This document shows, piece after piece, positions 2,256 through 42,395 of a DNA stretch of 43,151 bases. The position numbers and the translations under genes were made by a program. The stretch is from assembly GCA_000934665.2 (NCBI GenBank), contig JYFJ02003378.1, positions 1 to 43,151 of the forward strand, read 5' to 3'. Position 1 is the stretch's first letter. Each line of letters begins with the position of its first letter. Source of the DNA: Catajapyx aquilonaris (lineage: Eukaryota). The notes below the pieces were generated by a model. That model had not been told where the DNA came from, ran no database searches, and saw only the letters and a program-made list of their open reading frames with translations.

Positions 2256-4550
2256 ATGGAGTACTTGAAGCAAGCAACGTTGTGGGGTCCTTGCCTGGAC
2301 ATAACCAAAGCCCGAAGAGCATTTGGACTCCGATGCCTCCCAAAGCTGGTAAGGAACGCACAAAATAATTCCAACCCGCTTGAATCGTAACCATTTTCCA
2401 ATAAATTGACAGGATGAACACTTGAACGGAACCAACCTCCTGATCCAACAACAAGCGATCAATTCGCTGGACGAATGTTTGCACGACCCGGAGAATGTCG
2501 CACATGCCCTCAGGATTGGATTAGTCAGAACGCAAGTCCCTTCCGCACTTTTTTTATACATAGTATGTAATATGGCCCATTACTGAGCCAATCCATCCAT
2601 ACTGGGAACGTCCATCCCCCTGCCACCCATGTCGTCCACCAGCCTCCTTAGGAGTCCCAGCATCTCCGCACTCTGCTCCTCATACCGTTGCCTAGCCAGT
2701 TTCATCTCCCTGTTACCCTCCTTCAGCAAGGCCAGTATCTCACTGTCCACGTCAACCGTCTTCCGTTTGACTCCCTGCTGAACAGGCACTGGCGGAAGCC
2801 TCTCCTTGACGTCGTCCTCCGAACTGGCATCTCCTTCTCCGTCGCCAGATCCCAGGCATGCATCCATATGCTTGTAGAACACCCATTGCCTACAGGGCTT
2901 CCCGTTAACAGCGCCAGATTTCAGCTCCTAAAACGCCACAGGTGTAATACACACGACAACAAATTGAAGCGCACGTACTTTATACTTGTGGTACATGTTC
3001 TCCCACTTCCGCTTGGCTTGCTCTTCCGTCACAACCTCATCCAACCCCAGCTCGGTCAGGATCAGCCTGCCAAAGAGAGGCGCAATCAATGCTAGATCAA
3101 CGCTAATTAGGCAAACCGACTCAACTGCATCCCGGCACGTGCGGTGTTCCTCTTTCCGGTGAAGAGGTGTCCGTACTGGGTACGCAGCTTCACAAACCTC
3201 TTTGTCATCTCTGTCGACCCTGCAGAAGTGTTTGTATAATTATCAACCCAACATAATGACGTTTATCTTTGCCCAAAATGGTACGTACATTTGTAAGGTG
3301 TTGCTGGAGTGTCCCATGTGAGCCTGTCGCCTTTTTGGAGCAACTTTTCGTTCGAAGAATCTTCCTCACTGGACAGCGCCATCTTGAAGTAGGGCACAAG
3401 TCCGCTAAGGGCACTACTCTAGGCACATGAAATTAAGTTAATTTTAAAAACGCTGCATTTTTATCCCTTACTATATCCGTTTATAGACAGTTAATAACCA
3501 ACTTAAAACTGATAATTTGAGAAAATCATTTAAAAAGCGGTCGATTTGAAAAGGATGTAACTACATATCTGTACAGAGGGGCTGTATAAAACAGTTTTAA
3601 CACAATTGTTGTTGAAGTAATGAACATAGATTAATTAGTTAATTGCATCTGGTCCTGATAGGTTGATCAAACTGCTGCCGTCCAGAGACCAGCTAGTGCG
3701 GCAGAAGGCCTGCAGCTGCCTGAGGACAATCAGCAACCACCAGATTGGAAGGGAGGAGGCCATCAAGCAGGCCCTTCCAGCCGCACTCTCCTTCAGCCTG
3801 AGGGATGAGGCCAGACCGGTGCGCTTCCATGCCCACCGGTGCTTGCTGGCACTGGCGCAGGGGCCGGAGGGAGCCATGGGAATCCTGGATGCTCTGCTGG
3901 TCAAGCAGCTGCTCAGGCGGCTGGCAAGGGAGGACGGGGAGATAAGGGCCATTGCACTGGAGACGCTGCACAATCTCTTCCAGTTCGACCGTCTCCAAGG
4001 ATTGGGAGCGGGTGGGCTGGCCACTCTGATGAAGCAGCTGGATGCCGAGTACTGGGCGGTCAGATGGGGTGCTGCCGTCTGCATTGGGGAGCTCTCAGCC
4101 GACCCTGCTGGAAAGCTGCAGGGAAACAAGATGAACCTGATCCCAGCCCTCATTAAAATGTTTGACGACGACGTCATGACGGTCAGTTGACCCGTCACAG
4201 CCAACATGATATCCGTTTGACTAATGAATCCTTGTTGCATTCAGGTACGTGCAGCGGCAGCGGCAGCCCTCGGGTTCCAGACGATTACGACCCCTGGGAA
4301 GATCCAGGCGGTCAAGCTTGGCCTCGTAACCAAGGCGGTCAAGCAGCTGGATAGCGGGTGCTGCCCTTGCACGCACGAGATGATGCTCAACACGCTTGGG
4401 CTGCTGACCAACCTGGCCACCGTCCCGGAGGGCCGCAAGATCCTCCTGGAGCACCACATGGAAGTCCTAAACATCTGCGAATTCCACAAGAATTACAAGG
4501 TTGCCTCCAGTGCCAAGCAGCTAGTCAGGGTCATCCAGTTCATGCCTTAA
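2256..4550 (+). CDS. RSPH14: Radial spoke head 14 homolog (RTDR1-like ARM-repeat protein), ~345 aa, 4 exons
   Basis: Exons 2256-2348, 2713-excluded none; exact set: 2256-2348, 2413-2531, 3662-4181, 4245-4550 (1038 nt, in frame). Motifs AFGLRCLPKL, LHDPEN, TPGKIQA, PEGRKIL and terminal VIQFMP match recalled RSPH14 motifs (AYGHRALPKL, MHDPEC, TEGKYAA, PEGRKAL, VIEFKP). Intron 2 is modelled as GC-AG. Confidence 0.85.
2580..3382 (-). CDS. Myb/SANT-like (trihelix/MSANTD-type) DNA-binding protein, ~207 aa, 4 exons, nested in RSPH14 intron 2
   Basis: Exons 3382-3289, 3219-3126, 3066-2979, 2927-2580 with GT-AG introns of 69, 59 and 51 nt; 624 nt in frame. Reads YKWSTEMTKRFVKLR..LFTGKRN..EQAKRKWENMYHKYKELK..WVFYKHMDACL followed by a C-terminal coiled-coil-like segment. 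Confidence 0.8.
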
Positions 4551-5489: not shown

Positions 5490-8400
5490 TCACCAGCACT
5501 TGCTCTCTATCTTGTGTGCTTCCGTTATCTTCCCCTGTGCACTGAGTACCCTGGCTTGAACAGACGGGTGTAGGGCCGAGAATCCTGGGGGAACCAGAGG
5601 AGACGGGGAGGAGGAGGCGGAAGAGGCGGAGGAGGAGGCGGCGGAGGAGGAGGAGGAGGATGGGGATGGGGAGGCCGAGTGGTGGGGAGGCACACCCTTG
5701 GTTCCAACCATGGAGCCGACCAGCCCCCCGTTTGAGACCAGTTGCTGTGTTCCAGGGGGTGGCAGCTGCGGAGGTGGGTACGCCAGAGTGGGGTTTGGGA
5801 GTGTGGGTGGAGGAGGGTATCCCAAGGCCTCGAGCCAGTGTGGAGGGGAGTCAGAGCGGGACTTGCTGAGCTGGCCGCTGACCACTATGGCCGGATCCAG
5901 GGCTGACCACTCCGTCTGAGGGGGCGCTGTGTTCATGCCACTGCTTCCGCACTTCCAACCTGAACAGAATACGCCAACAGTCAAGATTCGCTTTGGTCGC
6001 TTGCAACAACATGTGTATAGTCAAGAACCTTACCTTTGCGTTGAAGTGACTGCGGCAGAGAAGGCAGCGAGTGCAGTCCACTGTGAGTATGGTGGGGTAG
6101 GGAGGAGGAACCCGAATTGCTTCCGCCGCCTCCCGCTCCGCCCGCACCAAAGGCCAGCAGGGAGTGCAGCCCTTCCAGTCCTGGAAACACATCCTTGTTG
6201 TTGTTGTTGTTATTGTGATGGTGTGGATGGTGGTGGAGCTGCTGTTGTTGGTGATGCAAGTGGTCCATGTGGTTGCTCAGGTGGTTGAGGTGTGGAGGAG
6301 GAGGAGGAGGGTGGTTGGGTCTGGAGGTGGGGAGAGGAGGGTGCCTCATCCCACCACCATTGCCATACTGTTGTTGCATCTGACTGAACATGCTGAGATC
6401 ACCGCTCGAGTTGATCCCGGAACCAACTGAGGATGACCCCATGTGGTTGTGGAGGAGGGAGCCCAGGCCAACATACGGGAACAACTTGCTACCAGAAAAG
6501 TCTGGGGGGAGAGAGATATACACAAAGGTAAGTTTTGTCATCACCCAGCAGTTGCACAAAAGCAAATCCCAGAACTGACCTGGATGATGTGTTTGCTGCT
6601 GCCGAGGTGTTGCGGCTCCAACTCCCAACCCGTAGGAAGAGGCAGCAGAGGAGGCGAATCCAGGCGGGGGCTGCCTGGCCCTGTTCCCGGGCATGGTTCC
6701 AGGTTTGGAAGGTGGGGGAATCCTCTGGTGCTGCCCACTGAGCAAATGAGCCAAGTGTGGTGAGGACTGAGAGTGCAGGTGGTGGTTCTGGTGGTGGTTG
6801 TGGTTGTTGTATAAGGACGCGTGGGTTGCCGATGAGGAGTGGCGCAAGTGGGGCGGCTGGAGCACGTATTGTGTGCCGTAGTGGTTGTATTGAGAAGCTT
6901 CCTCATCCTCCTTTTCCATGATCTCCGCCAGGGCCTTCTGCGTCTCGTGGAACGGGTCAAACCCAAGGTCATCCTCACCTAGCTTGGAGGAGGAGCAGTC
7001 CTCGTCATCCACAACGTCACCTTCCCTGCCGCCCACTACACTGGTTGAATTTCCACTATTAAACCCGAATGCGGCTTGCCAGTCCGTATTGCTATGGTGT
7101 GTGGGAAGCGACTCAGGCATGGCAGGGGCAGAGTCACACAGCCAGTCTGGAAACGAAACCAAAAAGTGATGAACCAGCTGTTCCTCCCACAAAAAGCTGT
7201 CTTCTACACATGTCCCATAATTATCCCATAATTCTTACTCTCTCTCTCTCTCTGACTGTGAGTGCACACATTCATGAGTCTTTCAAATGGACACCCTACA
7301 CATGACAATTTCATTAAAAAATTGCTTAGGAACCATGACTTTGCTCATGTAGACAACTAACAAGCATTTCTCGGACAAGCAAATGGCTGCACTGCCTGTC
7401 CATTATCCCAACAGACCCAACGTAAAAGTCTGCAGTGAAATATGCAACTTAAGATTGCGACACTCACCTCCGTCCAGTGAGGATGTTGGCAGAGAGGAGG
7501 AGGACGAGGCTTTGCTCCCCGATGGAGATCCGTCACTACTTGTGGTGACTGCTGCCACAGAGGATTGCACTGAGTTGCTGAAGAAGGAGTTGCTGGACAC
7601 CGCATGATCTTGAAGTACCACTGGGTTGTTGGCCATTATGTTGGGCTTCTTCTGGTGGAGGGAAGGAAGGGAGGAAGATGAAGATGAGGACGAAGAGGAA
7701 GAGGACGAAGAGGAGGAAGTTGATGATACTGGGGAAGGTGATTGGCTAGGGTGAGGAGGATTCTGTGGTGAGAACAAGGAGGAGGTGGATGAAGATGATG
7801 ATGATGATGAAGAAGAGGATGAGGAGGATGAAGATGAAGAGGAGGATGGAGAAGAGGAGGCGGAGGAGGATGGAGAAGGTATCGGCTTTGGCTTTGACTT
7901 TGAGTCTGTGGCCTCCTGCTCGTTGGCAGGGGGGCTGGGTGGGGAGGGTATTGGGGTGTGGGAGGAGAGGGAGGAAGAGGAAGAGGAGCTGGAGGACGAC
8001 GAGTGCCCCTTCTCCCTGCTGCTCTTCCTCTTCCCATTGACCTGCGGCTGCTGCTGCTGCTGCCCCTTCTTCCCACTCTTCCCTCCACCACTCCCACCAC
8101 TGCCTCCCTGCAAGGAAGGCCACACGCCCTCTTTGACCCCTCCTCCTTCCTTCCCATTGGCGATACCCACTTTGCTGTCCACCAAAGTCTTGTCCACCAC
8201 CTTTTCACCTCCACTGCCACTCCCACTACCATTCACTCCCCCACTGCTTGCAGGTGTTGTTACCGGAGGAGAGTTGTTGCTTGGTCTCCTTGAAAAAATG
8301 GACAAAGTTCATGTAAGCCCTGTGATCTAAACAAGTATCCGCAAATGCTCAATCCAGCTATGAGAACTACATGACACCAATTCAGTAGCATAACAATTGG

Positions 8401-11400
8401 CTTGGGAATACTACGAGGGGAGTTCATAAAGTTCGCGCCTTTGGGTTGACGGAAATGAGAGAGACGGTTCAAATTGCAGACATGTACGAGTATTAATCCT
8501 TCTCTCTATATGAACTATGCAAAGCCACACATTTTTCCCAGTGATTCACGACCTGCGGGACACCATCATTGTATAAGTCGACACTTTGTGCTTGAAAATG
8601 GTTTTCAACCTCTGTGATCACCCCCTCGTCGCTTTCGAAATGTTCCCGCACAGTGGTTGCTTCAAGTGGTAAAAGCGGAAGAAGTTCCCAGGGGCGAGGT
8701 CTGGGGAATACGGCAGATGGGGCAGAATATGTACTCCAACTGGCCTGCAAGTGCCACAGTTGCATGGGCAGAATGAGCAGGTGCATTGTCGTGCACACCT
8801 TGCGTCACCATTCCTCTTCTCTTCAGCTTGATCAGGTGATACAGCTTTTACAGGAGATCTTGATAATACTGCCCTGCGATGGTCTGACATTTTTGTGCCT
8901 AATGAGTCAGAATAAAATCCCCGGGAATCCCAAGAAAAACACTGAGCATAACCTCCCCAGATGATGATGGCTGCATTCTGCCCTTCTTTGGCGGTGGAGA
9001 GTTTTGAGTGTTTCCACTGCTTGTTCTGCAATTTGGTCTCTAGGTCGTAGTAGCACACCCAACATTCGTCCATGATCTGAGGAGTCGGTTGAAAAAAACA
9101 CCATCTTCGGAGAGGAACATCGCCAACATTTCCTTAGCCTTACCCAGGTTTAAAACTTTTTTCAAGCACAAAGTGTAGACTTCGACAATAATGGTGGCCC
9201 ACAAGTCGCACATCGCTGGGAAAAATGTGTGGCTTTGCAGGATTAATATAGAGAGGAGGACTAATACATGAGTGCAATTTGAACCGTTTCTCTCATTTCC
9301 TAAAACCCAAAGGCGCAAACTTTATGAACGCCCCTCGTAAATATGCGACCTGCGCACTCGGTTGCGCTCACTAAAAAATTGATCTATAGGATCTTGGCTT
9401 TGGCATCAAGTCAAGAGGAATTTAGAAATGGTTGCTGGTGGATACCCTGACGACTATCAAGTTTGCATAGTTACACGTGTAACTGAGGCAAAGTTTGAAT
9501 ATTCTCCATTTCATCTTCACAGCAACGCCAGGGAGCATAAACTACATAAGAGGCGCAAACTTCTGTCGCCGCCTTTGATGTTCGCGTCTCTCTGTTTATA
9601 GGGCGTTGCCAAGGCTGGCGGCCATTTTGAAGTGTGTGGTAGGCCAACGACGTATAAATAGGGTACAGGCAGGCCGTCAAGGTCCGCGGGGGTCCACCAT
9701 ATTTGATGGCTTTGGCGGCCATGGCAACTACACGGCAAGAACACGCGCGAATTTGAATTCGATATTGGAATGGGTGAGTAAATTGTTATTGCCGTGGCAG
9801 CCAAAACCATCAAAGAAGGCGGACCCCCGCGGACCTTGACAGCCTGCCTGTACTCTATTTATACCTCGTTGGTGCACCACGCTGCCAGCCTTGGCAACGC
9901 CCTATAAACAGAGAGACGCAAAAATCGAATGTTTGCGCCTCTTATGTAGTATATGCTCCCTGTCAACGCAAGTAAAACACATCATTTGGCCTGAAATGTG
10001 TTTTCGCTACGACGCAGTACTCCAAGCCACGAAAGGTATAGCACTGCTCTCAGTTTCTGCAGTTAACAATAGCTGCCATTAATGACTCTCTTACACATGA
10101 AAACGCAATTAAAGATGGATATTGCGTAAGTAATCCAAAAATTAATACTGGCAGCTCTTTTTCTCAGAAACGGACGGCTGCTTACTCCCATGTGCATGGA
10201 GTTGTATGGCATCGAAGTCTTAGATTAGTCTCCTCCTCACCTTTCCTTGTTGATGTTGTTCTGTGTTGTGCTAAAGACTTGCTCATGCAGCTTCTTCTCA
10301 TAGTCCTGGTGCTTCCCTTGCTGCATCTCCTCCTTGGTGAAGCTGGCCTCCTGCTCCCCTGCAAACAACAAATACAGACATCACAATATGGTCTCATAAG
10401 ACTCTCATGTCCTCCACAAGCGAGACTTACCCAGCTCATGCAGGTACATGCAATCAGACTTTGGGCACGCCTGGTTCTTCATGAAGTGCGAGCAATACTT
10501 GGTTGTCCCCAGTGAGGCCTTCAGCGTCTTCCCATCCACAACAATGTTGTTCACGTTGTGGATAGCCTTCAGGGCGTCCTCTGACTTATGGTAAGTCACG
10601 TACGCAGAAGCACTTGGGCCTTGAGTGCCAGCATACGAGGAGCTATGGTTCACGACCACCTTGTGGATCTTGCCAAACTTTCCGAAGTAGTCAGCCTTCC
10701 TCAGAACCTATTGACGGGCATAGATGTGGCATTAATAACGTGGTTCCAATGCAAATAGCAGGTCCATGATGCTCAAAGTGGCATAAATAGGGAGGGATCA
10801 CTGGTGAGGACATCACATCTACATGCATTGCATCAGTAGGGCTAACCAACTGTTCAATATAACAACGAGGGGTCACCCCGAAACTGGACTTTGGACTACG
10901 ACTGCAACTCTTCTGAACACTCTAAATGCCCTTGTACAGTTGCTTGTTTCACTGCAAAATCTCCGTCACTTCTATTTTTAAAACATGCTGCCATTGTTGT
11001 AACTGGAGATGTCACGAGTAATGATAGAGAGGGAGGTCAGGTTGGAGGAGGTGGGGGCACCACTTCCCCTTTCCCTGCATTATAAACTGAGTTAACGGCA
11101 TTTTTATCGCAGCGCATATCACATTTCGGACACTGAAGACCCATACCTATGCATGGAGACATTTATCGCAAAATGTTCCAATTTGGAGGCAGTGGCCGTT
11201 TAATGTAAATTTTGCCCTGTGGTGATCCCAGCTCAGAAACGACCTTTTCAGCTAATTTTCACATGACCTAAGCCCTTTACTCCTCAAAGTGTGTGGATTT
11301 GCTGGAACAAAACCATTATTTGCCTTCTATGTACTACATTACTTCCTTATCCCAACTTCTGATTATTCAACTAAGCTATGGAGAGGTCAGTAGTGAAATT

Positions 11401-13242
11401 CCCTGTTTTCTCTCACTCACTGTGGTTAGTCAGAAAGAAACACGAGTGCCCTGCCTTGGTCTCAAGGCCAAGTTTGACTTGTATCAGTACAAGCGTTATG
11501 ATCTCCTGCCCAGTCCTACATCTCAAACATAAGTGTCCTTGGGATTCCAAGTGTCACCAAAATTTGAGGGTGCTGTCACACTTTCCACGTCTGTGTTATC
11601 TTTAAACGTAATGCTTGCACTTGTAGCCTGACTCTTGGAGAGTGCATACCCTGACCCACTTTTCTCCTGCTGACAAGGCCAAGGTTACCATATGGAACTG
11701 AATTAATCATCATTTTGCTCCTTCAAATTACTGCTTAATAATTATAATTGCCTTTCCTCCTTGTCTGAAAGCAACTAAAATTCGCACTTCTTTTTGTTTC
11801 GCTTGTGTCCCTTACCTCAGCATCTGCCAGCCTCTGTGGTAGCCCAACGACGAACACTAGGTTCCGCTGGACAACCCTGACATTGGCAAGCAGGCGGCGG
11901 TTCTCAGTGAGCTTCTGCTTCCTCTGCGAGTCCCTGTGCCTCTTTTCTGCCTTCAAACGCACTATTTCCTCCTGGGTCAAGGGCTTGAAGTCTGCCGGAT
12001 TTTCAGGATATTGCTTGCGACACGCTGGACACAGGCCGTTCTCATCAGTCCGGATCCGATGCCAGCAGAAGCGACATATCTGCCAAAGAAATTGCAGACA
12101 TTGTCCTGAATTGCTCATCAAAACAATGGAGATGGCTCGGCCACACTTAAGCAGTGGCAATGATGCAGCCCCCTAGTAACCATGTTAGCCCATCCCAACC
12201 TAGGGAACAAAGGAACATAATTTGACCCTGCCCTATTGTTTCTTATCAGACACTTGTTCTCATTACTAATGAAACTTGGCACTTCTTCGAAACTTGTGCC
12301 TTGCTCATGCACTGATACCACAAGGCGTAGCCATCTGCAATGAACTTAAAATGGCTGTACCAAAGGACAGTGCATTTTCATTGCGCTGAAATGCCTGATT
12401 TTCCCCGAGTACAACTACCCTTGCTGAATCCTGTCATTCATCACACAGTACTGGATACCTTCGCATTGTATGGCCATCCAATCCGCACACGTTGAAGAGC
12501 AATACAACAGACTCCTGCACAAGCCCAAGGCTGTTTCGTGTAACATCTCCGCCTCACACTGGCCACTTGATGATTCTTCTACGCACAATTCACAATGGTT
12601 CCAGATTCTCAGTACTGTTAACTTGTCAACAAACATTTAGGCTCCGATGTTAGCCTTGAACCTGACCCAACTCTCACAATGAGCTAAAACCAATCCATTT
12701 CCTTTGACAGGAGTAAATGAACTTCTGCACAAGCTGCTGACCACATGGTTTTAATGGTCAAAAACAGCCATCAAATGTGTGGTAAACTAGCCATAAGGAG
12801 AGACATTAAAAGTTTCGCTGCCAGCTGAGTCATGCACCTCTTCTGGTAGGTCCAGTGCTTCCAAGTAACAACGCCTGTCAGTTAAGAAGCCAATATCCAA
12901 ATTAACAACTTATTTAATTAACTTAATAATCCTAATAATACTGCCGTTATAATATGAAGCCACTGAACAGGCTCACACTTGCAACGGCCATCATTGCCAA
13001 TGTTTCTTTAAATAAGGAAAAAGTGCTGCCCATTCCACACAAAAGAGACTCCGTCTCGCTGAAAGGAATTCCTAGGGATAATCACTGCTATGCACTTGCG
13101 CATCAGGCAAGAACAAAAGTGTCAGAATTCGTACCTGGTACCCGCACGTGCATGGGAAGAAGCTGAGGTCGTCCACCTCGAGTGGCTCCATGCACAAGGG
13201 ACACTCCACCTGCTCCTCTCCACTCTGGTTCATAACGGACAT
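5490..13242 (-). CDS. CNOT4: CCR4-NOT subunit 4 (RING E3 ligase with RRM and C3H zinc finger), ~1030 aa
   Basis: Exons 13242-13135 (CPLCMEPLEVDD..CTCGYQ), 12079-11816 (ICRFCWHRIRTDENGLCPACRK..VRVVQRNLVFVVGL), 10707-10431 (YFGKFGKIHKVV..ASLGTTKYC..CMYLHE), 10358-10241, 8288-7468, 7146-6580 (DWQAAFGF, DDLGFDPFHETQKALAEIMEKE), 6501-6034, 5959-5490. All splice phases are compatible; the extreme C-terminus is less certain. Confidence 0.95.
8414..9337 (-). mobile_element. Non-autonomous mariner element with a degenerate transposase and extended inverted ends
   Basis: TA target duplication (8412-8413 and 9338-9339); TIRs cgaggggagttcataaagtt / aactttatgaacgcccctcg; frameshifted transposase fragments DECWVCYYD, PHLPYSPDLAP and WEKCVAL. 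Confidence 0.9.
9529..9962. mobile_element. Fold-back MITE with ~200 bp imperfect inverted arms and CAGGG...CCCTG termini
   Basis: cagggagcata...tatgctccctg; internal blocks such as tctctctgtttatagggcgttgccaaggctggc recur inverted; flanks gcaacgc / tcaacgc suggest a 7 bp TSD with one mismatch. Confidence 0.8.
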
Positions 13243-19800: not shown

Positions 19801-22800
19801 CCTCCTCCTCAGTTGCCTCCTTGACGGCCGTACCCTTCTCCTCCACAGTTGAAACCACCCTGTCCAGAATGGAGTCCATGATGTCCAGTGCCATCATGCC
19901 AGGTCCATCAATCTCCAGGGTCGGACTGGCATCATCGACAGCTTCCCCTTCCTCCTCGTCCCTGTCCTTCTTCCTCCGCTTGTGCTTCTTCTTTTTCTTC
20001 TTCTTTCGCTTCTTTTCTTCCCCGCCATCACCTTCTGACACCACTGACTCGTCACTCTTCTTCAGAAGCTTCCTCATCTGCAGTCTGGTTAGCCTCCCTC
20101 CTTTTGATTCAACTTCCCATGCCGCAGCTGCCTCCTTCTCCTTTTCCTCCTCCTCGTCTTCATCATCCCTGCCTTCCTCCTCGTCGTCCTCTTCCTCACT
20201 CTCCTCCTTCCTCTTCCGCTTCCTGCGCCTCCCTGCCCTGCTCTTTCTCCGAGCCTCCTCCTCCTCTGCCTCTTCCTCATCCAGACCCTCTCTGTTTTCA
20301 ACCCACCGTGACTGTCTGTATATCCTGAGATCCTGCCCACAGAACTGCGGAAAGTGCAGGTACAAGTTCTCATGCCTGTCTGTCCCCAAAATGTACGATC
20401 GCTGATCGGCCAGTGGTTGCTCAGCAACTGACTCCGCAATTGTCTTGTGCTTATGCTGAAGGAGAAGAAAAAAAGGTCATAATTACTGCCAGTTTCATTT
20501 GCTCCTAACATTTTCCACCTGTTTACAAAAGTGGGTGTGAGCCCACAATCACAAGCAATCAAGCATAGCATTTACTTTGTACGTATGATGATAAAGAGAG
20601 AGATAAAAATGGTTTGGATAAGAGCATCACATAATATTGAATATACTTTTCCAAAATAAAATTTAAAAATGCATTTATCCCTATTGATGTTAACCTTGCA
20701 ACATAACGCATGCCCTCTGTTTACATCTTATATGCTTCCGTCTGTGCTTGCCATGACAGACGCCATTACACCAGACGTGTCCTTGAGCACACGTGGAACA
20801 TGAATATTGCTTTGCTACGTGCAAATTTGTATCCACATTTCCACGTAACATAATATTGTAATGTGTCTGTCAACTTGGAATATAATAGAACCTACAATCT
20901 TTGCTTACAGTCATGAAAATACAGTGTACTACTGGACACCAGTGCAATTACAAGCGAGTATTCCGCTTAAATGACCTGAGTAATGCTTGTTGTTAAAAAG
21001 ACTCACCAGTAGAAAGTCACATAGGGCCTTGAGGATCCAAACTCTTTTGTGGAAGGGAAGTTCATGGAAGGGAAACTGGTCCAGCGGATTCACTTCTCCG
21101 AGCATGTCCCACGTCATCGGCTCCAGTCCCAGGGTATCAAACATCTGTACGGAAAAAGGCGAAATTTAAAAAATGACCACCAAATAAAAATGCAAGTGGC
21201 ATCAAGTTGAACAAAGCACAAATAAAGATATATTTTTCTCCTTGCAATCATGTAATAAAATGCGACTTTATGAACCAATTCCCATTTGGCTATAACAGAC
21301 CTGGGTTATAGTAGACTGATTTCCACAGTCCCTCAAGCCTATAACCTTGAAGTCGGTTATATCCTGAGTCTACAGTGTATAGCATCATTATTCTCAAAAA
21401 TATTTTGGAGGCTCATTTCAAACTACAAAATGGTACTGTACTCCCATCGAGATGACAGTGGGAATTCAAGCAGGCCAATCCCAGTGACGTGCCGCTCTGG
21501 TAAAAAATCCACCAACCCACCTTCTGCTTATCTCGGTTCTCCTTATAGTAGATGCGGTACCAGGAACGGAATTTGCCGGCCAGCTTTCTCGTCCACACAG
21601 AGTAAGGCATCGAGGGCAGCTTGTCTAGTTTTGCACGCACATTAGGGGAGCTGCAAATTGTAATAAAACATGCCAACATGAATGTGTGCTACACAAGTAC
21701 TCGCAAAATAAATAAATAACATGTGCGTGATGCGAAAACTACTTTGGATAACTGAAAACCATGATGGAACAGTTCTTGGTTATAAATAAGACATCAGCCA
21801 TTCAGCCAAAACTACTTTGAGTGGTACAGTGGTGACAGACTAGCTTCAAATGCACTTATTAGTAGATGGGAATAATAGTGAAGGCGCTATTTTACCTAAG
21901 CAGAGCAGTCATGAGCATGGAGAGAGTCCTGGACGCCTGTGGCATAAGAAGAATCCTCTCCAACTCAAACTGAGGCACTTCATTGATGTTCAGGGCCTTA
22001 AGCGTGATAAAGATGAAGTGGCCTATCTGCGGGAGCTGGAAAATAATGCGAAATTTGGATAAGCCTTAAAACATGCGAAAAATGGAAAGAGAACCAAGGA
22101 GTGCAACTCACCTCCCACATCAGCCTCATCTGCGACAAGATTGGCTCCTTAAGCAAGGTTTCCTCCCAGGTAAGAATCTCCTTTTCCTTATCCTCTCGCT
22201 GCTGCCTCTTCATATCCTGCTGCTTCTTCTTGCTCTCTCGATCCCTCTCTGCCCTGTTATCACGTACTCTGTACAGCACATGTGAGAAGAAGCTCAGGTC
22301 CTGAGTCGATGACCTGGATGACCTCCGCCTGTGCTTATGCTGCTGGCTGTGGGCTTCTGCCTCTGATTCAATTGGCAATCCAGATGTTGCCTCCAAGGTA
22401 CACTTGGCACGGAGGTCACTGCAATGAATGTGGCATAATGATAAAGAGGATCCCAAAATAAGGGTAAAAATATTATTCAAATGATGTACAGGATTTAAGA
22501 AGAATTATTAATCTTCAATGTAAAATTTCCTAAATTATCCTCCCTGTCCTGGATGTGGTGGCATTCAAAAGGAGCGTGTTTGGAAACTCACATGGGCAAG
22601 AGGGCCAGCTTCTGCTCCATGATCTGCTCCAGCCTCAGTCCCTTCTTGGTCCGGCTGTGATATGGGCCAAAGTAGCGGTAGCAGTTCTCCAGCATCAGGC
22701 GGAGGTCAGACACCAGCACAGTGAGGTCAGCATACTGACCAGAAACCAACTTGGACTTGACTGCCATTTCAGGAAAAAAAAGTTGTACAAAATTACATCC

Positions 22801-28249: not shown

Positions 28250-30115
28250 ATGGCAGCCTCACTCCCAAATCATCTGCCAGAGTCCTTCGACAATTGTAAC
28301 AGAGATTGTACAGAAGAGAGCGAGACAACTTCTGATGGCACAGAGATGGGGATTAGTGTCCCTGACTCTCATCATTTGGACATGTTGCGCCAACTGGATG
28401 ACTTCCGCCACTCCTCCATTTTCTGTGATGTCGATCTGATATGCGAAGATGGGACTTCTCTTAAGGCCCACCGAGCCATACTTGCAGCATCCAGCCCCTA
28501 CTTCAAGGCCATGTTTTCTGGGGGGCTGGCGGAAGAGGGGCAGTCTCGGGTTCCCATACATGGGGTGTCGTCTGCATCAATGAAGATGCTGGTTGATTGT
28601 GTGTATACTGGACGCATGGAGAAGTTGTGTCAAGGTAATGTGGGGGAGGTGGCCGCGGCAGCCAACATGCTTCAGATACACACGGCTGAAGCCCTGTGCA
28701 CCAAGTTCATGAGCCAACATCTGGACAAGTCCAATGCAATTGGTGTGCACAGATTCGCCACTGCATATAACTACACCAAGTTGGCAAATTTGGCCTCCAG
28801 ATTTATTGAGGACAACTTTGATGCTGTTTCTACTTCAGAAGAGTTTATGAATCTGTCAAAGGAGGATCTGCCACAGTACTTGATGAGCAGTAAAATAAAC
28901 TGCGGTAAAATAAACTGCCGTAGGGAGGGAAAAGTCTTGAGAGCTGTAATTGCCTGGATTGAAAAGTCGGTAGAGGAGAGGCGGATGTATGCACATGAAC
29001 TGTTGGAGTGTGTAAAGTTAGCAATGATACCATACAGCACCATTTATGACACCATGTGCAATGATGCTGCCCTGAAAAGCATTCTGAAGTGTAAGTTTGG
29101 GGATGTGGGAAAGAACTCTGAATCAGTGGTAGCAGGAAAATCTGGGATCACAACTGTCATATATGTAGTTGGAGGGTGGGAGTATGACACAAGGCAACTG
29201 ACACCAGGAAGAAGATATCCGAATATGATACTATCCAGAACTGTGTGGTACTTAAACATGCTTTGTGGCACGTGGCACAAGTCAGAGGGTGTGGGGTTCA
29301 GTGATGACCGGCATATTACTCGAGAGAATCCTAGCATTGCTGCCATTGGATTTACTGTTTACCTGGTAGGTGGTATCTCTGAAGATGGGGAATGGTTGGA
29401 CTCGTATGATTTTTACCACACAAGTGAGGAAACTTTGTTTAAGGGTGAGGGCAGACTGGAAGTCGGACGTTTTTATTTTGGCCTGCAAGAATTAAATGGC
29501 TGCTTATATGCATTTGGTGGAAGAGATCGGAATTGGACTCCCCTTGGGAGCATTGAAAAGCTTGATCCCAAGAATGGTGAATGGCATGTGATTGGCCACA
29601 TGCCCAAAGCAAGATATCTCATGAGTATTGTTTCTTATGGAGGTCTGATTTATGTGATAGGTGGGCAGGATCATTCACATGTTCATTCGAAAGAGTTGAT
29701 GTCTTACAATCCAGAAACAAAAGAGTGGAAAACACATGCTCCCTGGTTGAATCCACGCTCGAGCGTGGGAGTTGCTGTCCTTGATGGCCACGTGTATGTT
29801 GTGGGTGGAATTATAAGTGTTGGGGAAGACATATTACCTTCAGATGCAGTGGACAGGTATTCTTTTGAGAGAAACGAGTGGACAACGATCCCTCCTTTGA
29901 AGCAGGGGATCATGAGCCCAGGAGTGGCAGCTGCTAATGGCTGCCTGTATGTTCTTGGTGGACAAGTGAGAGGGGAGAATGGGGGGGTGGAGATGACTTC
30001 TGATGTTGTGTATTATAATCCCGAGACTGGTGAATGGAACTCAGGGATATCAATGCCAAAACCCCATTGTGAGTTTGGAGCATTTACAGTACAATATTGG
30101 ACTGCCCAATATTGA
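28250..30115 (+). CDS. Kelch-like protein (BTB-BACK-Kelch, probable Cullin3 adaptor), 621 aa, intronless CDS
   Basis: BTB motif DVDLICEDGTSLKAHRAILAASSPYFKAMF, a BACK region, and six Kelch GG motifs (IYVVGG, VYLVGG, LYAFGG, IYVIGG, VYVVGG, LYVLGG). First in-frame ATG at 28250 follows an acceptor at 28240-28241; a probable 5' UTR donor is at 27895. Confidence 0.92.
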   Translation: MAASLPNHLPESFDNCNRDCTEESETTSDGTEMGISVPDSHHLDMLRQLDDFRHSSIFCDVDLICEDGTSLKAHRAILAASSPYFKAMFSGGLAEEGQSRVPIHGVSSASMKMLVDCVYTGRMEKLCQGNVGEVAAAANMLQIHTAEALCTKFMSQHLDKSNAIGVHRFATAYNYTKLANLASRFIEDNFDAVSTSEEFMNLSKEDLPQYLMSSKINCGKINCRREGKVLRAVIAWIEKSVEERRMYAHELLECVKLAMIPYSTIYDTMCNDAALKSILKCKFGDVGKNSESVVAGKSGITTVIYVVGGWEYDTRQLTPGRRYPNMILSRTVWYLNMLCGTWHKSEGVGFSDDRHITRENPSIAAIGFTVYLVGGISEDGEWLDSYDFYHTSEETLFKGEGRLEVGRFYFGLQELNGCLYAFGGRDRNWTPLGSIEKLDPKNGEWHVIGHMPKARYLMSIVSYGGLIYVIGGQDHSHVHSKELMSYNPETKEWKTHAPWLNPRSSVGVAVLDGHVYVVGGIISVGEDILPSDAVDRYSFERNEWTTIPPLKQGIMSPGVAAANGCLYVLGGQVRGENGGVEMTSDVVYYNPETGEWNSGISMPKPHCEFGAFTVQYWTAQY

Positions 30116-32048: not shown

Positions 32049-35000
32049 TCAGCGAGCCAGTAGACAAACTGCTATTGAAACTATTGCAATCCAGGCAGCA
32101 GGCGAGTTTGAAACTCCTGAATCTCCAAATCTGAAGACACGTCTGTGGGCTTCTTCCACGGTCCATGGGTTCTCTCCGTCATTAAAATACATGGGGCATT
32201 GGTCACCTGCAAATGGTATGCAACAGTAAGAGCAAATATATCTTTCCTTCTGATTTCAGAAAGCGATTAAAATACATATTTATGCTTGGCTAATTAATGA
32301 AACCTGAGACACTCACGCTCTCTCTCATACTCATCCATGACGAGAGAGACGCCAGCTCCCTCTGTGTAGTTCCAGCTGCCGACATCCTGGTTTAGGTTGC
32401 AGAAGGGCCCCACTGATTGCGACATGATGACCCTGTTGAGGTCAGCTCTTTGGTACACCCAGCATCGGTACTTGCTGAATGCATCCAGTTCGTCGTAGGT
32501 AATTAGGTATGACTTCAGGTTTTCCTTCCAGTATCCTATGCACTTCATGCGGTAGTCCGGATCACCTTAATAAAAAAATGTAACAATGCTTAGTGCCTGT
32601 AATGAAATGATTATTTCAGGTGATCATGCAAGAACATGCAAAGCAGGTGTAACACCGAGCGGCAGAAAAGCGCAGTGATGAAGGGAAAGTGAGCTACACA
32701 ACCGCACCAGAAATGTATGTGTGAAATGCATGGAAAATAGGATCCATCATGGGTAGATAAGCCCTTATGCCCTTCTGGATTAATGATGCCATGTTTATTA
32801 AAGCCAATGCCTGTATGATTAAGTGGCTCACTTTCACTTGACTCCACTTTATGTGTTACCAACACTAGGAAAAACTAAAATCTAAGTGCTCAGTTACAGG
32901 TTTTATCACAGTCACCAGATTGTTATTATAATACGTATAAGATCTTTATAAAAGCACGAGCATGAAAGTGCTATAGAGGTACTAGGTGGAACAAAAGCAT
33001 ATTCACTGATGCTGGCCCCCTTTTTACTTCGACTTCAAGTGTAGCAAGGAATCAAGTTTCCTGTCAGAAAACGCATAATGGGCCACACCTTCAAAATTCA
33101 AAAATATGACAGAAATTGTCAGCTAACTGTTGTTCGACCCAGTCCGTATCAAGACCCACACAAAATAAATCATCGCCTTCCACTTCAGCCTTCTTTTAGT
33201 AGGGTCCCATTCATTAAATACACCTCATCGACTCTCTCGACTTTCCTAACTCTACATCTCTTACTATCACCCTCAGAATGCAACTATTTATAATGGGACC
33301 CACAATATTACATTTTTGTGAGAAATTAACCCCATTCTCTCAACTATAAGTATAATATTTTTATGCAGTTGAGTAGCAAATAAGAGCTGACAACTGAACA
33401 TATGTAGTTAAAGTTATCCACAGTTATTAGTATTTTTAGACACAAATAAAAGCAATATGTACAAACAAAAAATACACAGCACATAATTGCAGTTTAAAAT
33501 CATGTAAAAACAACATCCCTGCCCTAATACATATTGCATTGTATATATTTTAAATACAAAAATCCTCACAAGTTATTGTCCAATAATCTTCACCCAATTT
33601 TTTTTAGATACATCACCACCAAGAGTTGAAGTGAACCCTCACCTCATCACTCACACTCAAAATCACAAGCATTCAAAATCCATGCGCTGCTGGTTGTATT
33701 GGATTAATTTAAAATAAAAATGTTAAAAACTCGTGCTGTTACTGTCACATGAACCTCGGTCAGCTTCAAATTTTCTATTTGGACCATCAAAAAAAATTTC
33801 AATGGCATGCTTTTTGAAGCTCATACAGCATTTTAAAAATTCAAGTTCATCCTATATTTTTCGGGACAATACCCCTTTAATATCGCCCAAACGAAGCACG
33901 TGGATTTTTATTACCATTGATAAACCTCAATCACACCATGAACATCAAATTAGTGCCAGAGAATCCCTCAGTCATTAAACTCAATTTTGACAATATGAAA
34001 ATAAATAAATAATAAATCCATAACCTAAAAAAAAACACTGCAGAAGAAATTAGGTATAAGACACGAAAGCATAGAAGCCACATCACATGTACACAGTAAG
34101 CATATTTACATAGCCAAGTGGTCGTCAACCATTTTGGAGTCATGGAACCCTCTAGCTTTTCACCAAATTTTGCCTGACTTCTCAGATCAAACCCTGCGTG
34201 ACCCAATTTTTCAAACACTGCACGATGCTCCATTCTCAGGTTATTAAAAGGCAGTTGTGAGTCTGGTAGTACACTAAGTACTCGTTTTACGCACCTGCAT
34301 TTTATGCCGTTTCACATTAACAACGGTTTGAAAACAATGTTTTAACAATTTTTCATTGAAAAGTGGTTAACAATTTGACGATAACAACACAATTTAAACA
34401 TAACCACATCACCATCATAAATTCTCTTTTTTGTTTTTAGTGGTGCCTGTGGCGGGGTCTATCGATAAATACAGTACTCGGCACTCTCCGAAGTCTGTTA
34501 AATACCCTCTTCTGCAGTTCTTGCCAAAAGAAAAGAGATCTCAGAACCCGATAAGCCACGACTTGGAACCTCCCATCAAATGTGCATAATAAATGTTTCA
34601 AATAGTTGGCACTAAAATCAGCAATTTAAGGACAGTACTGTCTGAGAGAAAATTTACGAAATCTTGGAACCTATCTCATTTCCTTCCATTATAATTTTGT
34701 CTCGTTTTACGCCTTTTCACTTAATGTCTTTTCACTTTACGTCACATTTTGCTGCAACCAATTACCAGCGTAAAACGGGTCCTACCTACATAATATGTAT
34801 AAATTGTCAACAGAACAATTTCCATGATAAGTTCAAATGTAGCGGAAACCTGTGTATTACAGAAAGTTTTCACAAAATGGAGCAATTCCACATACTTAAT
34901 ATTGACCAATTAGCTCTATGGAGCCCTTCAGACACACCAAAGGATACTGGAAGTCAGAAGCCCACCAGCTGAAGACCACCATTTTAACATATACAGGAAG

Positions 35001-38000
35001 AAGAACAGAAGCGTAATTACACATATAAGTCCAAAGTGTTCACAAAATATTTTGCGAAAAAAATTTCAGCTCATAAGACATTCCATTCACACAGTGACAC
35101 TTCACCAAAGTTCCACGCAATATTGCAAAAGCAAAAAAGCAGCAACACCAGATTGGCAAAAAATAAGGATCAGTGCCAACACCACAGTGCAGCAAATGTG
35201 TCAAAATTTTACTGTAGATGTCGATAGGCCTTCCCCTGTAGTCAACTGATAGGCAGTAGTTCTCATCGATTGTGATGACCTTCTGATCAGTGTCGCACAC
35301 AGAGAAGTCTGATATGTTGTGCAGGCAGATGACCTCAGGTCGTGGGGATTGCGTCACACCTCCCAAAATCCTAGTCTCAAACAGGACGTCTCCTCTCTGG
35401 GTGAAGTTGAACTTGCCAGCCACTGGGCAGCGAACAGGCACAGGGTCCCTTGCTGGGATGCATGCATATGTGACAGTTCAATTAATAACTAGCATGACAC
35501 TCCAGCTGCCTTTTGGTTCACACTGGGTCACACTGTGTCACTCAAGAGATCAACACTCAAGAGGTACTGGAGAGGTGGTGCAGTGCTCGAATGGCATATG
35601 TCCAGTTCCAAACTTTTCAATATTCATTAGTGTGTTTCGACAGCAGATTTCTTGTCGTAAATATAGCAAAAGGCAGAAGATGACTGCCTCTACAAAATTA
35701 ATTTGTAGAAACTGGTGACAAAAAACTATGCAACAGCGTCTCATGGCTGGCACGTAATATTCTCACAACTTTACACTGGACAAGACTGCACCAACACTGC
35801 ATCTCTCTTGAGAACCGCATTTACACCTTCGGTACAAGCCAGTGAAATCCACTAATGGCAAACTCATTAACAAGTCCAATTTTCACAAACCACAAGTTCA
35901 CAAAGAGTGCATTTCTGCCTAAGACCAAGCATTAATTTCGCTGATAACAAGAAATTTTGGTCCATTTAATAATGTCATAGGTGAATTTCAGTGCATTCCT
36001 TAAATACTACGTACACCTTAGACATACATGCTGCATATTTCCCACTTGCTGAAACCTTACAAGAGAATTAAGCAAGATTAGTTATTCAGGGGAGTGGCTT
36101 TAGCCACTTGAAACCTTTCTCGACGTACTGTATATGTCAATTGGCCTCCCAAGCTGGTCGACCGACATGCACTTGTTGACCTGCACCTCAATAATCTTCT
36201 GTTCAAGGGCGCAGTTTTTCAGCGATGAAATGACATCAGGGCATCTGAGTTGAGGCCTAGGGCTTAAGGTTACCCCTCCAATGAGTCGAGTCTCAAGGGA
36301 CATCTCGCCCTTTTGGACAAACTGGAAAAAGCCAGCCACAGGGCAACGGATTGCTTCTGGCCTCTTGGCTGGCATGTCAGCGGAATAAATAAACTGTGGC
36401 ATTAGTAAAGGCTTAGAAAATCAGCATGCAAGGCAGTGCATGCTAATGGTCACACCTGAAACATTTCATCGTAAGACATGGTGTCACCAACAATCATCCT
36501 GCAACATTAGCATTGCAAAAATTCATTTTAACCCACACATTTCGTAAAACTAATTTCAATTCTCTGCTGCAGTGAAATATTATCTGAGATGCAGAAACAC
36601 TAGTCACAATGGATACTCATAGAGTGAATTCAAAAAAATAATCACGTTTTGCTACATCTGGATGCTGAAACCATTGATTCTCAGGCTGATCATTACCGAC
36701 AATTACGTGCAAGTCATAGCCAATCAATTTAACCATTATATGGTAACTTATGTTTTCTGATGTCAATTCCAAATGCTTTCTGGTTGTAATATTTAATATC
36801 TGATCAGCAGCTAGACGACTTGTAAAAGGTTGTAATTGGCTCTGTCATGGCATAGTGTATGACTTCACTTTGTCACCAGAGATGGTGTAGGTATTAGCAA
36901 CTTCATGACTAGTGCAACAGTATTAAGATGTAGTAATCATCCATAATACCTTGTAATAAACAGCTGTGACCAGCAGTCACAAGCAGGTGCTCCTTCTAAC
37001 TGACATTAACCACCTGCAACAACATACGTCCATAACATTGTACACCTTCACATAAAGTCGCTAACTCCTTGATGGAAAAGTTCCCGAACATTAACTCTTA
37101 GGGCTTTCTACAGTGAACCACAACATGCAGTTGCTGCCTAGTGACTCACCCAGATAGATGTCATATTTCCACGACTGCTTGTTGGGGAACTGGACCCACG
37201 AACAGACAGTGGCCCAATCATTCTTGATCATTGCCAACCCCTTCCTGAACCGGACGACGTTGTGATGGCGTGGAACAAACTCAAAGCAAACATAGTCCTT
37301 TTGACTGGAAGTGAAAAATACAACATTTGAGGAGAGTCAAAATTTTAGGATAACAATGGTCCAGACATTTAAAAGATTCATGTCGCTATGAATGATCTAC
37401 CAGTTTGATTGTTCAATTGTATTGTACAATTTCACTTATCACTCTTTGATGAATATGACTGAAATTATCCTCACCATCCATCAACCCCAAGTCTGGCCAT
37501 CAGGTAGCGAGTGTCCCTTTGCGCTTGGCACACGTAGATGGTTCGCCTGTACCTCCCCTCATCCGGATACCACGTCTCCACTATGTGGGTCTGATTGATG
37601 AACACGTCCGCATCCAAGTTGGCCGTATTGATCCAATCACCACTGAAGTTCTGCGGGAGGTTACACCCAGGGGTCACCACTTCTGCCTTCACTGAAAATA
37701 ATCAGAGAATGACATGAGTAAATTACACAAGACTAATTGTGGTACTCATTTAATACAAACCTGGTGTGATCCTCATCCTCTCTGGGCTGTTCTCAGGTGT
37801 GTTGAGTACGTTACATTCAGCTGTGATCGAAGCCCCGATGTACAGATCATCATCCCGGTTCTTGAGAAAGCAGCGATACTTCTCCTCTTTCCTCGACTCC
37901 TTGGTGTTGGCAGTCGCAAAGAAGTGGTTCTTACCCACAAACCAATCGCCAAGGCACGAATACTCAACAACGCCATCAAAGGTCTCCGTCATTCCCTCGC

Positions 38001-38769
38001 ACGCTCGATAAGTAATATTAAACTTCTGGTTGAGAATAAGAAACTGCGAGCCCGGAGTCTGGCAACTCTGTATCATCGCTTCGGGGTTGTTGCATTCACC
38101 TGTGAACCTGTAGCGGTTCTGGTACCCAAATTGCCACACTCCCTCCAGACTCGAGCGGCAATTTACAGGCACAAAATTCTCCTGGAAAATACAGAACAAG
38201 TTATAATCAGCTTCCTGCTAAATCCGACGTCACAATTACGGTAGCGGAAAACTTCAATGTGTCTTACCTGAAAGAGCGTGATGAGCTGCTGGCTTGGATT
38301 GAGTTTGCTGCACACGTTGTCCACTGTTGGCGGAACTCCTGGTCCGAGGCTGTTGCACCCGCTCTCCACCTTGTCCATGATGTTGATGGTCCTCACAACA
38401 AGCTTGACGCAGTAGTAGCATCCACCTTCCTTGAACACGAACGTGTAGTTGGTGTGAAACTCCTCCCGCATGGACACGCACCACCCTTTCCCGGTCATGG
38501 AATCCGCATTGATCTCCGTCAAAGTGTTGTCTCCATTCTCACGTGAAAACCACGTACCCCAGATGTGCTTCGGAATGTGGCAAGTCTCATCCACACAAGC
38601 CGACAAGTTGAAACAGCACGCTGCAAACACATACGGATGGTTTTAGTCATAAGTAATTAGTAATATTAAGTGTTCTATGAACGAGTCATGAGGCGTATAA
38701 TTCGGGGTAACGCCCTAACTCACCTACGATCAGGATGGAGGCGATGGTGGGCCACCTCGTCCCCTCCAT
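32049..38769 (-). CDS. Secreted Cys-rich, probably GPI-anchored protein resembling the Drosophila Undicht/CG10217 family; ~612 aa with one of two alternative exons
   Basis: Exons 38769-38724, 38620-38268, 38181-37761, 37691-37475, 37304-37150, [36368-36129 or 35452-35213], 32565-32317, 32206-32049; all phases compatible. N-terminal signal peptide (MEGTRWPTIASILIVACCFNLSA); C-terminal small-residue site plus hydrophobic tail (GDSGVSNSPAAWIAIVSIAVCLLAR*). The family name is from memory and unverified. Confidence 0.85.
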
Positions 38770-40840: not shown

Positions 40841-42395
40841 CTAGTCTCCACGTGCAGAGATTACGTAAGGCGCACTCGTCTGGTGCACTCTGCTCTTGTG
40901 GCGCCGCACGTTAAATGGGCTTGCAAAATTTTCCCCGCACACGTCACATGAATGGAATTTCAAATTCAAGTGGACACCATTTACGTGACTTTTCAATTTA
41001 CCACTTTCAGAAAATTTCTGGGAGCAAAATTTACATTCATGTGGTTTCTTGCCAAGATGAACTGAATTGACATGGCCTTCCATGTGACTCTTGTCAGCAA
41101 ATTTCCTATTGCAATGACTGCAAGCGTATTGCTTCTCTCCAGTATGTGTATTCAAATGCCTGGTCAAGTGATGCTTTTGTCAAGCCTCATGAGAACATAA
41201 TTTGCACTGATACCAACCACCTTTGAGTGTCTTTTCCATCTCTTTCATCCTCTCTCTGCCAACCGTCTCTTCATTCCCTGATTGCTCTTTCTCATCTTGC
41301 AGTTTGTTCGCTTTCCTCTTCCCAGAATATATTTCCCCCTCCACTAGTCTTGCTTCTTCGATCATTTGCCTTCTCCTTTGTGTCATTCGCAGCTGTCTCA
41401 TGAAACTCGACACAAGCATGCAGCTCCCTTTCTGAGAAGAACGTCTTGCTGCACACCTTACACTGGTTGGGGCCCATACCACCCTCATACTTCTGCAGAA
41501 GATGCTCCTACGTGAAGTGATAATAAACAAATCAATGAAATATCCAGTTCATGCAGTCTTCAGCTGTACAAGTAATGAACAGATTGAACCAAATGCAATC
41601 ACTTTGTCCAACCAGCAAATATAACACTGATAATTGGATGAGTTTATCAATTCAGTTAACTTATATGTCATTTTGTGGAGCTACTCTGCACTTGTTATTA
41701 AATCTTCCAGATGTTTATTCTCCCCATTTTGATCCCCGGCATCCAAAATGCCTCATTTCCAGTCCTCCTTGGATATTAAAATAGAAGCACAAAATTGTCC
41801 AAATCAATAATCATTCATGTTTTGCTTGAAAATAATGTATTCATTTTATGTCATCGGATCAAATACAAAGGAATATGTTTGGAATAATTCAGATAAATTT
41901 TACTGATGTGAATAACTTTTCCAAAACAATTTATATCATGCAAAATAACGAGATATTGCAGATTCAATCACATTTCTTCTCCCTGTGACAAATATGAAAC
42001 AATGAAGCCATTTTGTCCCCCCAACTGACCCAAGGCCCGGGGTTCAATTGGCTGTAGGAAAGGCTTACATGCGACCAGGTAGGCAGACGAATGGGAAAAA
42101 TTAATGGCAATATCTTGGCATGCTAAAGACTCATGCAAGACTCTGTGCATCCAGCGGTGTCAGAATATTCATCGGCCATCCCTTCATTCTGAAATAATAA
42201 TGTGACTTTACTAGCAAAACCTGTTTAAATTACTTTGCGTACTTTTTGAAACTGACGTTCTCCTCGTATCTGTCATGTCGAATGTCATTTTCGCCACATT
42301 CTGATGCCAACGGGTCCAGCAATTGCCATTCTTCTGATTGAAATATTCTCCCTTCACAATGTCAGTACTTGACGGCTCACGTGCTGCTTCACCTG
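40841..42395 (-). pseudogene. Disabled C2H2 zinc-finger gene
   Basis: Terminal exon from an acceptor near 41508 encodes a degenerate finger (CKVC..LHACVEFH), a frameshift near the G-run at ~41336, an in-frame TGA at 41180-41182 inside the finger CKLCSHEA*QKHHLTRH, then three intact fingers with TGEK-type linkers. An upstream exon-like remnant at ~42243-42392 is also frameshifted. Confidence 0.75.

Follow-up and report, generated by a model that had tools for sequence, protein, structure and literature searches.

The window analysed here, the whole of contig JYFJ02003378.1 (43,151 nucleotides, nt) from the Catajapyx aquilonaris assembly GCA_000934665.2, carries at positions 2256–4550 a plus-strand gene of four exons which encodes an RSPH14-like HEAT/ARM-repeat protein of 345 amino acids (aa) and is referred to below as the host gene. 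Its second intron contains, on the opposite strand, a four-exon open reading frame (ORF) which is probably a real gene, the nested gene, and whose product is most likely a Myb/SANT-like protein. The arrangement is that of a nested antisense gene, since the nested coding sequence (3382–2580) lies wholly inside host intron 2 (2532–3661). An initial annotation of this DNA had named the host as RSPH14, had placed its exons 2 and 3 1.13 kb apart with the other introns at 63–64 nt, and had described a full four-exon minus-strand ORF (2580–3382) in the gap, with a stop some 50 nt from the host donor. These points are upheld by measurement: the host introns are 64, 1130 and 63 nt long, a script check of the nested model (94+94+88+348 nt) gives 624 nt, or 207 codons followed by TAA, with one stop which is terminal, and the nested stop (2582–2580) leaves 48 nt (2532–2579) to the host donor. 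The coordinates of all features are collected in Table 1.

The identity of the host gene is supported by matches to solved structures. The solved human RSPH14 chain, 8j07_T, served as the colinearity reference for host exons 2, 3 and 4. All three exons tested match RSPH14, and their order along 8j07_T (33–68, 75–245, 247–336) is colinear; for exon 3, the sole solved structure with a better score is a designed ARM protein. Counted in protein residues, the host and human RSPH14 stay in register, with an offset of zero, on either side of host intron 2. It follows that the junction joining 2531 to 3662 is right and that no host exon is concealed in the 1130 nt, and a hidden exon within the intron, considered as a candidate, was ruled out on this ground.

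Host intron 2 is of the GC-AG type, a feature missed by the initial annotation. Its donor, AAC/GCAAGT (2526–2537), is the only non-canonical donor of the host gene and lies 48 nt from the nested stop. GT donors at 2524 or 2536 were considered for this intron and rejected, both being out of phase with the only acceptor that restores colinearity. Long introns are not unusual elsewhere in the window, where exons of a CNOT4-like gene stand about 1 kb apart, and the contrast in intron length holds inside RSPH14 only.

The introns of the nested gene (51–69 nt, all GT-AG) fall in the same size class as the 63–64-nt introns of the host. Two of the three share the donor GTACGT, and a pyrimidine-rich tract precedes every acceptor. 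The start codon stands in the context TTCAAGATGG, with A at −3 and G at +4; 12 codons upstream there is a stop in the same frame. The codon for W32 is made by the splice between exons 1 and 2 (T/GG). Least secure is the junction between exons 2 and 3, where the donor is weak and where use of another in-frame donor, 9 nt further downstream (exon end 3117), would lengthen the product by three residues. Alternative splice choices give product variants of 210 and 206 aa.

Table 1. Features of the RSPH14-like host gene and of the gene nested in its second intron. A slash marks a splice site; solved chains are given by their structure identifiers.
Feature	Coordinates	Strand	Description
Host exon 1	2256..2348	+	ATG at 2256; 31 codons; donor CTG/GTAAGG; read from the sequence
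Host intron 1	2349..2412	+	64 nt, GT-AG
Host exon 2	2413..2531	+	39 codons + 2 nt; top solved-structure match RSPH14 8j07_T, E=8.8e-4, aa 2-37 = chain 33-68
Host intron 2	2532..3661	+	1130 nt, GC-AG (AAC/GCAAGT ... GATAG/G); contains the entire nested gene; gapless 8j07_T colinearity across the junction
Host exon 3	3662..4181	+	HEAT/ARM repeats; Pfam HEAT 4.4e-09; RSPH14 8j07_T 2e-13, aa 4-172 = chain 75-245
Host intron 3	4182..4244	+	63 nt, GT-AG
Host exon 4 including stop	4245..4550	+	RSPH14 9fqr_Fj 8.2e-06; Chlamydomonas-type RSP14 7jtk_X 7.9e-4; aa 1-93 = 8j07_T 247-336
Putative promoter and 5′ untranslated region of nested gene	3383..3661	-	279 nt, 33% GC
Nested exon 1	3289..3382	-	94 nt; ATG 3382-3380; aa 1-31 + first base of W32 codon
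Nested intron 1	3220..3288	-	69 nt, GTACGT...CTGCAG
Nested exon 2	3126..3219	-	94 nt; aa 32-62; probable first part of Myb/SANT-like domain
Nested intron 2	3067..3125	-	59 nt, GTTGAG...TGGCAG, weak donor
Nested exon 3	2979..3066	-	88 nt; aa 63-92; probable third-helix region
Nested intron 3	2928..2978	-	51 nt, GTACGT...TTTTAG, tandem acceptor TAGGAG
Nested exon 4	2580..2927	-	348 nt; aa 93-207 + TAA 2582-2580; probable domain end, acidic linker, KRK patch, long predicted C-terminal helix
Candidate variant poly(A) signal TATAAA	2553..2558	-	22 nt past nested stop
Candidate variant poly(A) signal AAAAAG	2548..2553	-	with TATAAA, 22-27 nt past nested stop
Nearest canonical AATAAA	2106..2111	-	469 nt past nested stop, beyond host exons 2 and 1

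One indication that the nested ORF is coding comes from its codon usage. A codon log-likelihood trained on 3005 codons from other genes of the window is 0.424 in frame against at most 0.04 in the other five frames. Among roughly 2000 random windows of 621 nt, only about 0.1% attain this value, so that codon usage marks the ORF as coding. GC contents at codon positions 1, 2 and 3 are 0.58, 0.39 and 0.68, the last of which (GC3) lies inside the range of the neighbouring genes (0.47–0.81). The nested coding sequence as a whole is 55% GC; the exons have 49–56%, the introns 36–47% and the 5′ flank 33%.

The product appears to contain a DNA-binding domain of the Myb/SANT-like clan. Pfam searches and folding were run on contiguous pieces, that is, single exons and read-throughs. 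A read-through translation from exon 3 to exon 4, in which X replaced the single stop of intron 3, returned a sole Pfam family, PF13837 (Myb_DNA-bind_4), with E=0.016 and 16 bits. The alignment pairs read-through residues 12–29 (protein 74–91, in exon 3) with profile positions 50–67 of 89. In a language-model atlas of proteins, all named neighbours listed for exon 4 carry PF13837 (0.80–0.86), and the named clusters listed for exon 2 (31 residues) carry PF12776, PF13873, PF10545 and PF13837 (0.76–0.80); both exons accordingly have neighbours from the PF13837 family or its clan, at scores which serve as leads only. The agreement of three non-overlapping exons, reached by two methods and in the right N-to-C order, favours the Myb/SANT-like clan.

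The composition of the region concerned is consistent with this assignment. The segment aa 20–117 (98 residues) has an isoelectric point of 9.7, tryptophans at 23, 32, 84 and 107, and eight phenylalanines and tyrosines together. W32 would occupy the position of the first conserved tryptophan of the family, and the spacing of these aromatic residues may fit the family pattern. The Myb-like trihelix is described as three helices held by conserved bulky aromatic residues (PMC9179366, PMC9392472). Beyond the putative domain, residues 62–102 of exon 4 (protein 154–194) form a predicted C-terminal helix of 41 residues, for which single-sequence AlphaFold gives block means of 90–96 for the predicted local distance difference test (pLDDT). 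In its best heptad register, 8 of the 11 a/d positions are hydrophobic. A homodimer prediction for the C-terminal 66 residues scored 0.02 against a mark of 0.32, which is no evidence either way.

Several results weigh against reading the nested ORF as a gene for a Myb/SANT-like protein. The first concern the ORF itself. Dinucleotide shuffles of the 1130 nt (n=150), in which any GT..AG pair, up to three introns of 45–100 nt and both strands were allowed, produced a spliced ORF of at least 624 nt in 33 cases, so that under these loose rules the length of the nested ORF alone is not significant. Nested intron 2 has a weak donor, GTTGAG, and could be defined by 15 other GT-AG pairs that keep the frame. 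The others concern the domain. The 16 bits of the PF13837 match are below the gathering cutoff of 27 bits and come from a read-through instead of the spliced protein, and exons 1, 2 and 4 taken singly, as well as an exon 1–2 read-through, gave no Myb match in Pfam. Atlas scores below 0.9 are rated leads only, and every score obtained for the nested gene is below 0.9. A phmmer search of exon 4 against 1.84 billion representatives found no true relative. Finally, six peptide words from the domain have no occurrence in the supplement of fish Harbinger proteins that accompanies PMC9179366, although this is a weak test.

These results bear on the possibility that the nested ORF is not a gene at all and is instead an open frame of a long intron that either arose by chance or is decayed, with coincidental splice sites. 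Besides the shuffles, it could draw on the number of in-frame GT-AG pairs possible for the three nested introns (5, 16 and 37) and on the lack of relatives in the searches run. It is nevertheless very improbable in our estimation: the codon signal is specific to one frame and in the top 0.1% of windows, GC content differs between exons and introns, two of three donors are GTACGT and the acceptors follow pyrimidine-rich tracts, three exons agree on a single domain clan and do so in the proper order from N to C, and the long helix is confidently predicted. The Myb/SANT-like assignment made in the initial annotation is supported as to clan, through the sub-threshold PF13837 match in exon 3 and the atlas neighbours of exons 4 and 2, but a profile search does not carry it past the cutoff (16 versus 27 bits). 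Each line is weak taken singly; their convergence makes a Myb/SANT-like product the most likely, on the sequence evidence.

Other searches for relatives of the nested gene returned little. The sole match in the exon 4 phmmer search (E=3.5e-4), a repetitive fn3 protein, was rejected as spurious. A word-indexed protein search was blank both for exon 4, compared with longer proteins, and for exon 3 with an in-frame extension to 45 aa. The control with RSPH14 exon 3 was also blank, although relatives of RSPH14 exist among solved structures, and because the control failed as well, the blanks of this search say little. They may reflect only a lineage that is not covered. Likewise, failure to find the nested gene in the databases does not count as evidence that it is unannotated or new, because proteins of this organism may be missing from the collection. 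In a scan of metagenomes, 2 of 71 pattern matches passed; they represent a single word match, which falls in a fungal LOV-domain protein, and neither was accepted. A scan of viral contigs gave no match to the nested gene, comparison of the exon 3–4 read-through with solved structures gave nothing meaningful, and NCBIfam gave no match. In the literature searched on RSPH14 introns and nesting and on Myb/SANT-like nested Harbinger genes, no paper describing the present arrangement was found.

The clan to which the nested product most likely belongs raises the question of transposon ancestry. Autonomous Harbinger elements are described as having terminal inverted repeats (TIRs) of 25–50 bp together with target duplications of 3 bp and an ORF that encodes a DDE transposase (PMC9179366). 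No flanking inverted repeat was found in 2300–3900, and an alignment of the terminal region 2500–2620 with the reverse complement of 3383–3700 reached a score of 18, which was attained by 48 of 200 shuffles. Among the 111 stop-to-stop ORFs of at least 90 aa in the 43 kb, none has a transposase domain at E≤0.001, and the 1130-nt intron is itself too small for a DDE transposase ORF. The window holds no second copy of the nested gene. Since the tests in the window are negative, two defining features of an autonomous Harbinger, TIRs and an adjacent DDE transposase, are absent here, and the statement in the initial annotation that neither transposase nor TIRs could be seen is borne out for the window by the inverted-repeat search and the scan of ORFs. 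Within this scope the nested copy is immobile, being without TIRs and without a transposase nearby. An origin as a retrocopy was considered and rejected in view of the three introns of the nested gene.

Alternatively, the nested gene might never have been domesticated and might be one copy, possibly of many, of a Myb-like gene from a Harbinger/PIF-type or other DNA transposon, which was inserted in the intron, then lost its ends and its transposase, and is intact because it is young or because it serves transposases elsewhere. The nested gene fills nearly the whole intron, with 48 nt left on the 3′ side, and no orthologue or paralogue was retrieved in the searches run, both of which would be expected to suit such an origin. 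A Tc1/mariner-like remnant, recognized by eye in the window, would attest to past DNA-transposon activity here. We nonetheless regard this explanation as unlikely: TIRs, transposase and a second copy are all lacking in the 43 kb, codon usage and GC3 are like those of the neighbouring host genes, and the nested introns are similar in size to the short introns of the host. An old and ameliorated insertion would be compatible with host-like codon usage and intron sizes, and the clan is that of the second ORFs of Harbinger elements (PMC9179366, PMC9392472).

A further explanation is that the nested gene is an ordinary, lineage-specific host transcription factor of the PF13837/MADF clan, which was duplicated into the intron with no recent transposon involved and is independent of RSPH14. 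Its own introns, good start context, host-like codon usage and lack of transposon features would all agree with this, as would the labels of its nearest named atlas clusters, ‘Myb/SANT-like DNA-binding domain-containing protein’ and ‘ZSCAN29-like’. However, no source paralogue was found in the searches run, and the clan is repeatedly Harbinger-derived (PMC9392472), which makes ancestry inseparable on present data; as a distinct origin, it seems decidedly unlikely to us.

The domestication of MSANTD1–4 and NAIF1 was judged on single copy number, conserved position and a ratio of nonsynonymous to synonymous substitution (dN/dS) below 1 (PMC9392472). The Myb-like proteins that Harbinger elements encode are very divergent between families (PMC9179366); this fits the blank searches reported above, but is no evidence of a Harbinger origin. 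The nested gene is most likely a gene of the host that descends from a transposon, and not an active element. The reading that we prefer, and hold with moderate confidence, is that of a real and intact gene which is immobile, encodes a Myb/SANT-like DNA-binding adaptor, probably descends from a transposon and lies antisense in RSPH14.

On this preferred reading, the product would consist of five parts: an acidic Ser/Glu tail (aa 1–19), a basic trihelix of the PF13837 type (about aa 20–117), an acidic linker, a KRK patch and an amphipathic helix (aa 154–194). The protein may enter the nucleus and bind DNA through the trihelix, with the C-terminal helix holding a partner. Such roles are described for Harbinger Myb-like proteins and for their domesticated descendants NAIF1 and MSANTD1–4 (PMC9392472). 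Transcription of the nested gene would start in the AT-rich 279 nt between the nested ATG and host exon 3.

The position of its 3′ end would determine the extent of overlap with the host. The initial annotation had located the nearest canonical minus-strand AATAAA at 2106–2111, where we also find it, and had concluded that the 3′ untranslated region probably extends over host exons 1–2. The distal signal does lie there, but the conclusion is weakened by the presence of TATAAA 22 nt after the stop: because variant signals occur 22–27 nt after the nested stop, overlap with host exons 1–2 is possible but not required. A transcript ending at TATAAA would have its 3′ end approximately at the host exon 2 donor (2531/2532). 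Use of the distal AATAAA, with cleavage near 2090, would make the transcript run antisense across host exon 2 and intron 1 and on through exon 1 and the start region. With either 3′ end, collision with transcription of RSPH14 would be possible.

The remainder of the window contains several other genes and elements. A near-palindrome (1536–1652) lies upstream of the RSPH14 start, at a distance of about 600 nt. Its two 54-nt arms are separated by 9 nt and show 78% complementarity; a foldback element, an element resembling a miniature inverted-repeat transposable element (MITE) and a hairpin RNA are possible identities, and an Rfam search of the whole window gave 0 matches. A minus-strand ORF at 8621–9133 has no Pfam match at E≤0.001; by eye, and from a motif, it resembles the decayed C-terminus of a Tc1/mariner-type transposase. 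The CNOT4-like gene (5984–12172, minus strand) includes a RING exon (11738–12172) which matches human NOT4 (1e4u_A, 2.2e-21) with 37 of 43 aligned residues identical, an RRM exon (10408–10707) and a long low-complexity C-terminal exon (5984–7234). An intronless plus-strand ORF of 621 aa (28250–30112) encodes a BTB-BACK-Kelch protein whose closest solved natural relatives are KEAP1 and KLHL22; with three alternative starts tried for this ORF, none of the resulting sequences occurs exactly in a collection of 15 billion proteins. Minus-strand exons at 21416–21688, 32297–32566, 37753–38642 and 40844–41179 correspond to a KIAA2026 helical domain, DUF7042/DUF7044/DUF7045 and C2H2 zinc fingers. There is a single N at 39269.

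If the nested gene is expressed and conserved, it would represent another transposon-type Myb/SANT-like DNA-binding gene taken into host service. RSPH14, the known host of antisense GNAZ in vertebrates, would then be able to house a different nested gene, and the 48 nt from stop to donor together with the weak GC donor would make the locus a compact pair of sense and antisense genes in which transcriptional interference at a cilia gene could be studied. As it stands, the case is that of an ordinary nested gene whose domain family is very common and has been domesticated repeatedly.

Three known systems invite comparison. In vertebrates, an RSPH14 intron contains GNAZ in antisense orientation; an arrival by retrotransposition, followed by the gain of one intron, has been proposed for GNAZ (PMC5896119). 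Both cases have in common the host gene, the opposite strand and the containment of the whole nested gene in one intron (PMC5896119). They differ in that the nested genes are unrelated and that GNAZ has one gained intron versus three introns here, which argues against a processed copy. The present RSPH14 is compact; no GNAZ-like gene was found in any of its introns at 2256–4550, and none of the 111 ORFs scanned in the window has a G-alpha domain. It might be supposed that antisense genes have repeatedly settled in RSPH14, with GNAZ in vertebrates and a trihelix gene in the present lineage, and that nested transcription across the weak GC donor and, with the distal poly(A) site, also across the host start switches RSPH14 off wherever the nested factor is on; in a bolder version, a Myb-bearing insertion into a continuous exon would have created the 1.13-kb GC-AG intron. 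We consider this scenario so improbable that it is offered as speculation, and treat the GNAZ parallel as a curiosity.

The second system is the second ORF of Harbinger/PIF elements, in which, as in the nested protein, a predicted trihelix is followed by what would be a partner-binding region. Autonomous elements carry TIRs and a transposase, in contrast to the nested gene, for which both were sought in the window and not found. The domesticated genes NAIF1 and MSANTD1–4 offer the third comparison. They encode proteins of 275–559 aa and are single-copy, syntenic across vertebrates and under negative selection (PMC9392472). For the nested gene, which encodes 207 aa, the searches retrieved no sequence relative that would make it an orthologue or paralogue of any of them. 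NAIF1 and MSANTD1–4 are small genes of 3–4 exons, without TIRs or a linked transposase, whose only recognised domain is a Myb-like trihelix (PMC9392472); the nested gene resembles them with its four exons, its lack of TIRs and transposase in the window and its putative trihelix.

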